Shown piece after piece: positions 4,417-14,264 of a stretch of 64,000 bases of DNA. Location: the NCBI GenBank assembly GCA_964563795.1, contig CAZLYB010000013.1, positions 3,107 to 67,106 on the forward strand. The letters run 5' to 3'. Positions within the stretch are counted from its first letter, which is position 1, and each line of letters starts with the position of its first letter. Below the pieces are notes generated by a model, which ran no database searches, had not been told where the DNA came from, and saw only the letters and a program-made list of their open reading frames with translations. Made by a program: the position numbers and the translations under genes. Source of the stretch: an uncultured Bacteriovoracaceae bacterium (lineage in GTDB: Bacteria > Bdellovibrionota > UBA1018).

Positions 4417-4680
4417 ATGTTTGGAATATCAGGTGAGCATCTTTTAGTCCTGGGGATAATTCTCGTCATTTTTGGTCCCCGCAGGCTTCCTGAGCTGGGA
4501 AATACTCTGGGGAAAGCCATCCGCAACTTCAAGGATTCCTTAGCTGGAGTTGAAGACGCTCAATTTAGAAGGATTGATGAAGCAGCTGCAGAGAAGAAAA
4601 AAGCGCAGGCGGCGCAAACCGCCGCAGCTTCCTCCGCCGCGAACCCCGCTTCTTCTGAAACACCTTCCCCCTCCGCATGA
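4417..4680 (+). CDS. tatA: Twin-arginine translocase subunit TatA/E
   Basis: MFGISGEHLLVLGIILVIFGPRRLPELGNTLGKAIRNFK matches the TatA TM helix, hinge and amphipathic helix. The C-terminal tail is rich in Ala, Pro and Ser. Confidence 0.85.
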   Translation: MFGISGEHLLVLGIILVIFGPRRLPELGNTLGKAIRNFKDSLAGVEDAQFRRIDEAAAEKKKAQAAQTAAASSAANPASSETPSPSA

Positions 4681-5222
4681 GCACGCTTTCATTCGATAAT
4701 AAAAACTTCACGAAGTACCTCAATCGCTACGAAATCGACGCCGCAGTCCAATCTGTCGCAAATCGACTGAATGCCGACTATGAGGGGAAGAAAGTCCTCC
4801 TGGTCTGCGTTTTGAAGGGAGCGATCGTTTTTCTCGCGGATTTGGTCAGGCACCTCAAGATTGAGAATGAAGTGGAATTTGTTCGGCTCTCGAGTTACGG
4901 CAAGGCGCGAACTTCAAGCGGGACCGTGACCATCCTCAAGGACATTCAAGCGGATATCCGCGATCAGCATGTTCTCATCATCGAGGAAATCATCGATAGC
5001 GGCCGAACGCTGCGCTTTCTCTATGATCGGCTGAAGGCCTCAAAACCCGCCTCCGTCGAAATCGTGACCCTGCTTGATAAGTCTGCGAAACGCGTCGTGG
5101 AGGTCCCGGTGAAATACATCGGCCGCACCATCGAGGATCAGTTTCTCGTGGGTTACGGGCTTGACCTCGAAGAGCGCTGCCGCAATATGCCGGATATCTA
5201 TTATCTGAAGTATCCGAATTGA
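4677..5222 (+). CDS. hpt: Hypoxanthine-guanine phosphoribosyltransferase
   Basis: The PRPP-binding motif VLIIEEIIDSGRTL is present, and the KVLLVCVLKGAIVFLADLVRHL stretch is typical of HPRT. The start overlaps the tatA stop (ATGA). Confidence 0.9.
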   Translation: MSTLSFDNKNFTKYLNRYEIDAAVQSVANRLNADYEGKKVLLVCVLKGAIVFLADLVRHLKIENEVEFVRLSSYGKARTSSGTVTILKDIQADIRDQHVLIIEEIIDSGRTLRFLYDRLKASKPASVEIVTLLDKSAKRVVEVPVKYIGRTIEDQFLVGYGLDLEERCRNMPDIYYLKYPN

Positions 5223-5342
5223 TTCATCTCCTCTTAATCACCCCTTTGGGTTGGCGGGTGGTGAGCATCCCTGCTCCTTGAGCTTGCCGTCGTGGCAAGC
5301 TCTTTCAACCCGCACCAAAGGGGTGATTAAGAGGAGATGAAT
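5222..5342. repeat. 121-bp element bounded by 28-bp perfect inverted repeats (ATTCATCTCCTCTTAATCACCCCTTTGG), with an internal hairpin
   Basis: Arm 5222-5249 is the exact reverse complement of arm 5315-5342. The 65-nt interior contains a second hairpin, GCTTGCC-GTCGT-GGCAAGC, at 5283-5301. The element lies between the convergent hpt and gpsA stops. Confidence 0.6.
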
Positions 5343-5379
5343 GAGTAGATTGAATGACTCCTTAGAAAAGGCGCTGCTC

Positions 5380-6399
5380 TTATCCCTCGACGATCATGTC
5401 GCTCACCATGAGCTGCTTGAGCACTTCGGATGCGGGTTGCTCACCCCGCAGCATGCGATGAACGCCTTGCGTGATGGGCATCGGAATGCCGTGCGCTTCC
5501 GCGTACTCCCAGACGATTTCGGTCGTGCGCACTCCTTCGGCCGTGCTTCCCAATGTAGCGAGCACTTGCTCCAGCCTCTGCCCTTGGGCGATTTGAAATC
5601 CCACGCGGTAATTTCTACTCTGCGAACTCCCGCACGTGGCGAGCAGATCCCCCACCCCCGCCAGGCTCAAAAATGTCTCCACATCGGCGCCGAGCGCCTT
5701 ACCGAAGCGCACCATCTCGGCAAGACCGCGCGTGATCAACATCGCTCGGGCGTTCCATCCGAGCTTCAACGCATCCAACGCTCCTGAAGCGATGGCCAGA
5801 ATGTTTTTCAACGTTCCCGCCCACTCCACGCCAATCACATCAGGGGAGGGGTAAGCCCGAAAAAGGGGGGAAGTCAAAAGCGCGCTCCCCGCTTCAATCA
5901 CTTCTTCGAAGTTCGACGCGACGACCGTCGCGGCGGGCTCTCCGCGCGAGATCTCGTGGGCGAGGTTGGGGCCGCTCAAGACGCCGATCCGGCGCACTGG
6001 AAGCTCCTCCAATAAGACCTCCGAAATGCGTTTCATCGACTTTTGCTCAATCCCCTTCGTGGCATGAATGACGATTTCATCGCCCTGGAAGAATGAGCTG
6101 AATTTCCGGGCAGCCTCCCGGGTAGCGGCCGAGGGAAGCACCCAAAACACCAGGCGAACCCCTCCTTCGAAGACCCGCGACGGATCGCTGGAGGCGATGA
6201 TCTGGGAATGGAGCTTCATCTCAGGCAGGTAGCGCGAATGAATGCGAGTCGCATTGATCGAGCGGGCCGCCTCATCATCCCGCAGCCATAGACGCACATC
6301 CCGGCAATGGGGCGCTGCCAACTGCGCGACGCACGTCCCCCAACTCCCCGCTCCGATGACCGCGATGCTCGCGTTAGGCCAAAAATCCTTTTTCGTCAT
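5380..6399 (-). CDS. gpsA: NAD(P)H-dependent glycerol-3-phosphate dehydrogenase
   Basis: N-terminal Rossmann motif IAVIGAGSWGT. The protein is 339 aa, and the typical GpsA core (…LSGPNLAHEI…) is conserved. Confidence 0.9.
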   Translation of the reverse strand: MTKKDFWPNASIAVIGAGSWGTCVAQLAAPHCRDVRLWLRDDEAARSINATRIHSRYLPEMKLHSQIIASSDPSRVFEGGVRLVFWVLPSAATREAARKFSSFFQGDEIVIHATKGIEQKSMKRISEVLLEELPVRRIGVLSGPNLAHEISRGEPAATVVASNFEEVIEAGSALLTSPLFRAYPSPDVIGVEWAGTLKNILAIASGALDALKLGWNARAMLITRGLAEMVRFGKALGADVETFLSLAGVGDLLATCGSSQSRNYRVGFQIAQGQRLEQVLATLGSTAEGVRTTEIVWEYAEAHGIPMPITQGVHRMLRGEQPASEVLKQLMVSDMIVEG

Positions 6400-12489: not shown

Positions 12490-13377
12490 ATGAAGGGCAT
12501 TCTTCTCGCAGGCGGAAGTGGAAGCAGGCTTCACCCCTTGACTCAAACCGTGAGCAAGCAATTGCTCCCGGTCTACGACAAGCCCGTTCTCTACTATCCC
12601 CTGTCGGCTCTAATGCAAGCGGGGATTCGGGAAATTTTGATCATCAGCACCCCCCGCGATTTGCCGAAAATTCAGGAATTGCTCGGTGATGGGTCGAACT
12701 TGGGCGTGAACCTCTCTTATCTCCCGCAGCCCAAACCCAATGGGATTGCACAGGCCTTGATCTTAGGGGAGGCGTTCCTCAATCATCAGCCCAGCTGCCT
12801 GATCTTGGGAGATAACATCTTTTACGGCCAGAACCTCCCTGCGCAATTGGAGCGCTCGGCTCAATTGACCAATGGCGCTCAAATCTACGCTTACCAAGTG
12901 CAGGATCCCGAGCGCTATGGAGTGCTCGTTTTTTCCGCGGAGGGCAAGCCCTCGAGCATCATCGAAAAGCCCAATCCCGCGCCTTCTCCGTGGGCGGTGA
13001 CCGGACTTTACTTTTACGACCAAAACGCCCCCCGTTACGCAAAAACCCTCGCCCCTTCCGCCCGGGGTGAGCTTGAGATTTCGGACCTGAATCGGATCTA
13101 TCTTGAGAAAGGCCAGCTCGAGGCGCACCGGCTCAGCGTAGGGACGGCCTGGCTGGACTGCGGAACTTTTGACTCCCTTCTCAGCGCATCCCTCTTCGTT
13201 CAAACGCTTGAGCAAAGGCAAGGATTGAAAGTCGCTTGCCTCGAAGAAATCGCATGGACCCGGGGCTGGATTTCCTCTCATCAGCTGGGAAAGACCGCTG
13301 AATCCTATGGCAACAGCCCTTACGGGCTCTATTTGCAAAAACTGCTTCGCTCCCATCTCGCCGCGGAGAAAAAGTGA
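12490..13377 (+). CDS. rfbA: Glucose-1-phosphate thymidylyltransferase
   Basis: MKGILLAGGSGSRLHPLT...KQLLPVYDKPVLYYPLS matches RmlA. The protein is 295 aa. Confidence 0.9.
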   Translation: MKGILLAGGSGSRLHPLTQTVSKQLLPVYDKPVLYYPLSALMQAGIREILIISTPRDLPKIQELLGDGSNLGVNLSYLPQPKPNGIAQALILGEAFLNHQPSCLILGDNIFYGQNLPAQLERSAQLTNGAQIYAYQVQDPERYGVLVFSAEGKPSSIIEKPNPAPSPWAVTGLYFYDQNAPRYAKTLAPSARGELEISDLNRIYLEKGQLEAHRLSVGTAWLDCGTFDSLLSASLFVQTLEQRQGLKVACLEEIAWTRGWISSHQLGKTAESYGNSPYGLYLQKLLRSHLAAEKK

Positions 13378-14264
13378 TCCTCATTTTTGGTTCGACGGGG
13401 CAGGTCGGCCACGAATTGAAAAAGCAGCTCGGTTCAAAAGCCATTTGCCCGGACCGGCATGAAAGCGACTTTTCAAAGCCCGATCAGATCCACTCCCTTT
13501 TAAAACAGATCCGCCCGACCCAAATCTACAACGCGTCCGCTTACACGGATGTTGACGGCGCGGAGCGGGATGCCCTCGCGGCTCAAACGATCAACGCGGA
13601 AACCCCACGTCTCATCGCCCGATGGTGCAGCGAGAATGAGGTTCCTTGGATCCATTATTCGACGGATTACGTATTTTCTGGAACCCCTCCCTCGTCCCGA
13701 GGCTGGAGCGAGGACGATGCGCCCGCTCCTCTCGGAGTTTACGGAGCGACCAAGCTCGAAGGCGAGCGGGCGATTCAGGCGATCCCCTCCTCCAAGGCCC
13801 TCATTTTTCGGACTTCCTGGGTTTATTCCGACATTCGGAAAAACTTCATCAAAACGCTGCTCCATTTAGCTCAACAAAAAAAAACGATCCCCATCGTTAC
13901 GGACCAAAAGGGGGCTCCCACTTACGCTGAGGACTTGGCGCGCTGCTCAATTCAGGCCATGGAGCAAGCGGCTCAAATGCCCGCCTTCCCTTCCGGGATT
14001 TATCACCTCTGCCATGGCGGCGCGGTCAGCCGATTCGAATGGGCGGCCTTTTTTTTTGAGTCTCTTCAAGCCGCTCAACCCAGCTTCATCAAACCCGAAC
14101 TCAAACCCATTCTCACCGCTCAGTTCCGGGAGCAGTTTCCCCTCGCGGCACAACGCCCGCTGGATAGCCGACTCTCCATGGATAAAATTCAAAGGACTTT
14201 GGGAGTGCAAATGCCCCCGTGGGAGGAAGGAATGAAAAAATTGCTGAGGAAACTCGTATCATGA
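13374..14264 (+). CDS. rfbD: dTDP-4-dehydrorhamnose reductase
   Basis: MILIFGSTGQVGHEL gives the Rossmann start typical of RmlD, and the YSTDYVF segment is present. The gene overlaps the rmlA stop. Confidence 0.8.
   Translation: MILIFGSTGQVGHELKKQLGSKAICPDRHESDFSKPDQIHSLLKQIRPTQIYNASAYTDVDGAERDALAAQTINAETPRLIARWCSENEVPWIHYSTDYVFSGTPPSSRGWSEDDAPAPLGVYGATKLEGERAIQAIPSSKALIFRTSWVYSDIRKNFIKTLLHLAQQKKTIPIVTDQKGAPTYAEDLARCSIQAMEQAAQMPAFPSGIYHLCHGGAVSRFEWAAFFFESLQAAQPSFIKPELKPILTAQFREQFPLAAQRPLDSRLSMDKIQRTLGVQMPPWEEGMKKLLRKLVS

Follow-up and report, generated by a model that had tools for sequence, protein, structure and literature searches.

A possible MITE-like palindromic insertion at the hpt stop codon of an uncultured Bacteriovoracaceae bacterium

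Correia elements of Neisseria are non-coding sequences of about 100-155 bp with terminal inverted repeats (TIRs) of about 26-28 bp, which lie in intergenic DNA beside gene ends and form a long double-stranded RNA stem if co-transcribed. This stem is cut by RNase III, and the elements are further characterized by hundreds of copies, a TA target duplication, and known end sequences. The ERIC/IRU elements of enterobacteria are imperfect palindromes of about 100-130 bp in transcribed intergenic DNA and can alter mRNA stability. REPINs, described in Pseudomonas, and bidirectional intrinsic terminators are both found between convergent genes. BOX, RUP, and SPRITE are pneumococcal families of small interspersed repeats (PMC3049150). 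The element described here, found in a window of 64,000 nt (the whole stretch of DNA that was analysed), is like the Correia elements in its size, the length of its TIRs, its non-coding sequence, its position beside gene ends, and the long RNA stem that it would form, but it has one known copy, its ends are unrelated in sequence, and its sole candidate duplication is TGA. It is also like ERIC/IRU in its size, palindromic layout, and intergenic location, whereas ERIC/IRU, BOX, RUP, and SPRITE are all multi-copy with a recognizable consensus, and no sequence similarity and no family were found for the element. Its architecture is of a well-known kind, and its membership among the miniature inverted-repeat transposable elements (MITEs) is putative.

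The element is 121 bp in total (5222-5342) and lies between hpt and gpsA, two genes that converge upon it. The features of the locus are as follows.

4677-5222, plus strand: hpt, hypoxanthine phosphoribosyltransferase (PF00156), intact; the name is given by several sources
5220-5222, plus strand: TGA stop codon of hpt, also the left copy of a candidate target-site duplication
5222-5249, no strand: left arm, ATTCATCTCCTCTTAATCACCCCTTTGG, with pyrimidines at 21 of 28 positions (75%); it starts with the A of the hpt TGA
5250-5314, no strand: core, 65 nt, folded on either strand
5315-5342, no strand: right arm, purine-rich, with Shine-Dalgarno (SD)-like AAGAGGAG and then ATG codons at 5337 and 5341, pointing outward
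5343-5379, no strand: rest of the spacer, from the element to the gpsA stop codon, 37 nt
5380-6399, minus strand: gpsA, NAD(P)H glycerol-3-phosphate dehydrogenase, intact; stop codon at 5380-5382
Sequence expected at the ends of a parent insertion sequence: ATTCATCTCC...
Flanks at the expected empty-site junction: ...CCGAATTGA to GAGTAGATTG or GTAGATTG

A repeat search returned a perfect inverted repeat with two arms of 28 nt (5222-5249 and 5315-5342), 100% complementary and 65 nt apart, and the element reads ATTCATCTCCTCTTAATCACCCCTTTGG, the 65-nt core, then CCAAAGGGGTGATTAAGAGGAGATGAAT. An earlier note on this DNA had claimed both the 28-bp perfect terminal inverted repeats and the start of the first arm inside the hpt stop codon, and both claims were borne out. 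In the right arm, AAAGGGGTGATTAAGAGGAGATGAAT, an SD-like stretch precedes an outward-facing ATG; by the symmetry of the arms, the minus strand of the left end carries the identical outward SD-ATG motif. The element is the longest and the only perfect long inverted repeat in the 64-kb window. By simple arithmetic, chance would yield about 4e-10 perfect inverted repeats of 28 nt per 64 kb with arms a few hundred bases apart at most, which excludes it as an explanation, and matches to the 28-mer with up to three mismatches were absent from all 100 dinucleotide shuffles. With regard to the features by which MITEs are recognized, the TIRs are perfect at 28 of 28 nt, the length lies below about 300 bp, and there is no coding capacity, as six-frame translation of the 121 bp yielded no credible ORF with a plausible start. 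Elsewhere in the window, an imperfect inverted repeat (13875-13894 and 14039-14058; 20 nt, 80%, 144 nt apart) lies in the ORF at 13374-14264, where an A9 run pairs with a T9 run.

As the source is a metagenome-assembled genome and chimeric reads can yield palindromes, the stem might be an assembly or library artefact, such as a fold-back chimera. A separate Logan assembly, of run SRR13208906, contains a sequence identical at every base, continuous with hpt on one side and with 10 nt of flank on the other. The sequence is therefore not the artefact of a single assembler, although both assemblies may share reads. The arms are not copied from the flanking genes, and both of these genes are intact. 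We consider an artefact scarcely credible.

Comparison with related loci shows how much of the spacer is extra. The convergent hpt-gpsA spacer measures 16 nt in two relatives (L002 and L003, Bdellovibrionales GWB1_55_8) and 37 nt in a third (L004), whereas it measures 157 nt in the window, that is, 37 plus about 120. The remainder beyond the element (5343-5379, 37 nt) equals the whole spacer of the relatives (16-37 nt), and the additional ~120 bp fits an insertion. Nothing similar to the element was found in the relatives' loci. The Hpt C-terminus, ...YYLKYPN and stop, is common to the window and the loci of seven relatives, and the GpsA C-terminus falls at the same alignment position as in four relatives. 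On this comparison of sequences, the element represents additional DNA, specific to the lineage and located right at the hpt stop codon, and both genes are unharmed. The relatives that represent the empty site are distant, with GpsA 58-67% identical, and thus offer no alignable empty site; a closer one was not found, the best GpsA being 67% and the best Hpt 88% identical. Given this distance, the extra DNA at the junction may have had a gradual or local origin.

Such a local origin is the main rival to insertion. An older structured spacer would have acquired the 28-bp stem, or had it perfected, through a template switch during replication or an inverted duplication, and the palindrome would have been kept because it insulates and stabilizes the 3′ ends of both convergent transcripts, without ever having been mobile. 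Only one copy was seen in everything that could be searched, and the nearest 6 kb contain no transposase. Already by itself the core is significantly structured (z -4.2), and an older hairpin region could therefore have been extended. Template-switch "quasipalindrome correction" is an established mutational mechanism, and a stem free of mismatches would be its expected product. However, the arms are unlike any flanking sequence and unlike the spacers of the relatives, and no donor template is therefore visible. The extra length is a clean 120 bp over the normal 37-nt spacer and starts exactly at the stop codon. Moreover, the other convergent pairs of this compact genome are separated by 0-67 nt with no such hairpin, and a U-tract is lacking. 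Overall, we regard a local origin as unlikely, while giving it appreciable weight.

At the RNA level, the element is predicted to be very stable. The fold reaches -85.9 kcal/mol (z -10.3) on the plus strand and -87.4 kcal/mol (z -11.2) on the minus strand, and as single-stranded DNA the 121-mer reaches -50.6 kcal/mol (z -14). On both strands, the shape is a Y, in which the perfect 28-bp stem closes a three-way junction. The core alone folds at -33 kcal/mol and consists of a 6-bp closing stem (GGCGGG/CCCGC), a first hairpin of 5 bp (5263-5267/5272-5276, GAGCA-TCCC-TGCTC), and a second hairpin of 9 bp with a loop of 5 (5280-5288/5294-5302), which is followed by TTTC and which the earlier note had described as a 7-bp hairpin. 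Taken singly, the arms are unstructured, as they fold at 0 and -0.4 kcal/mol, which does not surpass shuffled sequences. Among the convergent junctions of the window, that of hpt and gpsA is an outlier in folding energy, at -0.51 kcal/mol per nt.

Its position between convergent genes is that of a bidirectional intrinsic terminator, and the note had offered an unusually long convergent-gene terminator as the alternative to a mobile element. Here, however, a 28-bp stem and a branched core take the place of a simple hairpin, and a U-tract is found on neither strand. An intrinsic terminator has a GC-rich hairpin of 5-20 bp directly followed by a U-tract, whereas only UUUC follows the 9-bp inner hairpin, and no terminator-like site (hairpin plus T-tract) was detected on either strand of 5223-5379. 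The absence of a U-tract, already claimed from the sequence, is thus upheld, and because of it the stem is not a canonical intrinsic terminator; the lack of a U-tract and the spacers of 0-67 nt between the other convergent pairs of the window speak against the terminator alternative.

The very stable Y-shaped fold on both strands would also be accounted for by the gene of a structured small RNA, or by a cis-regulatory RNA, with a function of its own. The left arm masks the SD and ATG of the right arm; the hpt UGA lies at the foot of the stem, and a ribosome that terminates there would unwind precisely this portion. However, no Rfam family reached its gathering threshold. With E values up to 10, the only matches were sub-threshold ones to plant and animal miRNA precursors, as for any generic long hairpin, the best being the MIR2119 precursor, which scored 49 bits where the gathering score is 73; over the whole window, two tRNAs alone reached the threshold. 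No sigma-70-like promoter was found in the spacer, and both neighbours present their 3′ ends, which leaves nothing downstream to regulate. No homolog was found in any relative, and neither conservation nor covariation can therefore be demonstrated. The sole ORF behind the ATG (5341-5787, plus strand, 148 aa, with a good SD in the right arm) is antisense to gpsA. In this genome and in four relatives, stop codons number only 0-4 in the codon-for-codon antisense frame of gpsA, and this ORF is therefore a shadow ORF and not a gene. The Rfam and promoter results give no support to the structured small RNA that the note had suggested, and we consider a functional RNA improbable.

Other RNA and recombination motifs were considered and rejected. 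A SECIS element or read-through at the hpt UGA is not indicated, since Hpt of relatives has the same last residue, whichever of TGA, TAG, or TAA follows, and reading through would lengthen the protein by 5 residues only. The tRNA-like 3′ end (...TTCAACCCGCACCA) was dismissed as ARAGORN finds no tRNA there, and an integron attC site, a hammerhead ribozyme, and a dif site were each discarded on inspection of their motifs.

The claim that the element is a MITE depends in large part on other copies and on a parent. A second copy was not found in the other 63.9 kb of the window, either by searching the 28-mer with up to three mismatches or by blastn-short with a word size of 7. The exact 20-mer of the arm, CATCTCCTCTTAATCACCCC, had no match in 185,579 GTDB species genomes or in 241 million JGI metagenome records. 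The locus of the window itself was also missed, which implies that those collections either lack the host genome or have it masked. A 20-mer across the junction of arm and core matched once in the metagenomes, by chance. Three scans of IMG/VR gave generic matches only, without extension or an inverted-repeat partner, and the outer 17 nt of the element gave isolated chance matches in phage contigs, where both were likewise lacking. No match came from blastn searches of plasmids and phages, and the concatenated six-frame translation had no relative among 5.8 billion protein clusters. No parent insertion sequence or transposase with matching ends was detected with arm 17- to 20-mers and the termini pattern in genomes, JGI, IMG/VR, plasmids, and phages, or in the surrounding 6 kb. 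Scans of the ten neighbouring proteins (ABC ATPase, FliG-like, RDD, chromate transporter, TatA, GpsA, acyltransferase, thiamin pyrophosphokinase, ValRS, and epimerase), which are all housekeeping, identified no transposase, recombinase, or reverse transcriptase within 6 kb.

A pattern made of the 11-nt termini and the gap between them had seven matches in the genomes, all in coding DNA, and the arms were extended in none of them; membrane-protein genes of Chthoniobacter are examples. The termini TTCATCTCCTC ... GAGGAGATGAA, 110 nt apart, recur in four Verrucomicrobiota genomes (L011, L012, L014, and L015; Chthoniobacter/Spartobacteria MAGs). Three of these sequences (L012, L014, and L015) are near-identical, and that of L011 is their reverse complement and matches less closely. 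They apparently represent one conserved coding sequence with a chance palindromic codon pattern, unrelated to the element.

These searches covered the 64-kb window and public collections, with the remainder of the host genome outside them. We roughly estimate that, had any sampled genome contained a multi-copy family diverged by no more than about 10%, a match would very probably have been obtained. As there were no such matches, the family, if it exists, is therefore not widespread. The host lineage is itself almost unsampled, because the best GpsA match among 5.8 billion protein clusters is only 67% identical. The best non-self Hpt matches, 85-88% identical, come from Bdellovibrionales, Oligoflexia, and Bdellovibrionota MAGs, and the exact Hpt was found in one NCBI contig and one SRA run (SRR13208906) only. 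A literature search found no paper relevantly connecting Bdellovibrio with MITEs.

The single copy also bears on the REPIN reading, by which two inverted REP sequences would have been mobilized by a RAYT (REP-associated, IS200-like tyrosine transposase). The geometry is alike, in that a pair of arms (about 25-28 nt) in inverted orientation encloses a spacer of comparable length (here ~65 nt) between convergent genes, and the left flank TTGAT, which we take to be the target pentamer of ISDra2, is a lead in the same direction. However, each REP unit is itself a short imperfect palindrome, whereas the arms of the element are not palindromic and remain unstructured singly. REPIN populations are usually dense, against one copy in these 64 kb, and a scan of ten neighbouring proteins, within 6 kb, revealed neither a RAYT nor any other Y1 transposase. 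The REP-like repeat suggested in the note is thus disfavoured by the lack of self-structure in the arms and by the copy number, and we give a REPIN-type element little credence.

Likewise, perfect inverted repeats around a short segment are the signature used in the detection of invertons, in which the 28-bp repeats would be recombinase sites that flip the 65-bp core. Against this, the surrounding 6 kb contain no recombinase gene, promoter-like sites are absent from the core, the element sits between two 3′ ends, and its orientation is identical in both assemblies. Invertible segments described in the literature are generally longer than this 65-bp core. An inverton is accordingly the kind of explanation that we would accept only with great reluctance.

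The reading that we prefer, tentatively and somewhat short of calling it probable, is that the element is an orphan MITE-like palindromic insertion, co-transcribed as a 3′ hairpin. The MITE claim of the note stands as far as architecture is concerned, with perfect TIRs, small size, non-coding sequence, and about 120 bp of extra length over the relatives; it is not sustained by a second copy or by a parent insertion sequence or transposase in the collections searched, and the candidate duplication is 3 nt long. That duplication, TGA at 5220-5222 and 5342-5344, is the only direct repeat abutting the ends, and an abutting direct repeat of at least 3 nt occurs in 4.7% of random flank pairs. Taken as a target-site duplication, which is suggestive only, it would leave an element proper of 119 bp (5223-5341) with TIRs of 27 bp, and it would explain why the inverted repeat reaches one base further (28 rather than 27).

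The analysis itself shows the sequence, its fold, the added length compared with relatives, the intactness of hpt and gpsA, and the lack of terminator, promoter, and Rfam signals. The mobility of this MITE-like element, its transposase, its transcription, and the processing of its RNA are what we infer, and the events might have been as follows. Most likely, a non-autonomous element with TIRs (a MITE or the relic of one) would have inserted about 120 bp at the hpt stop codon, within a former spacer of about 37 nt between convergent hpt and gpsA. The transposase would have been supplied in trans and would have recognized the 27-28-bp ends, and a possible 3-bp TGA target duplication may have restored the stop codon of hpt. 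Lacking its own promoter, the element would be transcribed solely within longer mRNAs, as the 3′ tail of that of hpt (plus strand), of that of the gpsA operon (minus strand), or of both. On either strand, the tail would adopt the same Y-shape, closed by a perfect 28-bp stem of double-stranded RNA. By analogy with Correia and ERIC elements, this stem may act as a barrier against 3′ exonucleases and as a substrate of RNase III.

A bolder version, which we consider highly improbable, is that the element is the first-seen member of an undescribed MITE/REPIN-like family confined to this almost unsampled lineage of Bdellovibrionota. Its outward SD-ATG motifs would be masked in the 28-bp stem. With a stop codon at the foot of this stem, a ribosome finishing translation there would expose them, and the element would be a mobile "translational coupling" module capable of switching on whatever lies beyond its end.

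If the element is mobile, it would represent a new family of small transposable elements, from a bacterial lineage with one genome and one sequencing run on record, and a tidy case of insertion on a stop codon without damage to either neighbour. If it is single-copy, it is merely an unusual 3′ hairpin. The understanding of such elements would be unchanged either way.

Finally, the surroundings of hpt differ among Bdellovibrionota. The gene directly after hpt varies between relatives and may be gpsA, a DUF4336 gene, a 389-aa ORF, rplT, a 126-aa ORF, or others (downstream genes at 3043-3744 in L005, 3077-4246 in L006, 801-959 in L008, 650-1012 in L009, and 3041-3421 in L010), which marks the 3′ side of hpt as a junction prone to rearrangement in this group. 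In L006, a classic terminator with an A-tract, a GC hairpin, and a T-tract directly follows hpt. On the 5′ side, tatA and hpt overlap by ATGA in the window (4417-5222) and in L006. Four other relatives (L002, L004, L005, and L010; ~1980-2500) carry between tatA and hpt an ORF of 152-163 aa with no Pfam match, which is absent from the window and from L006.
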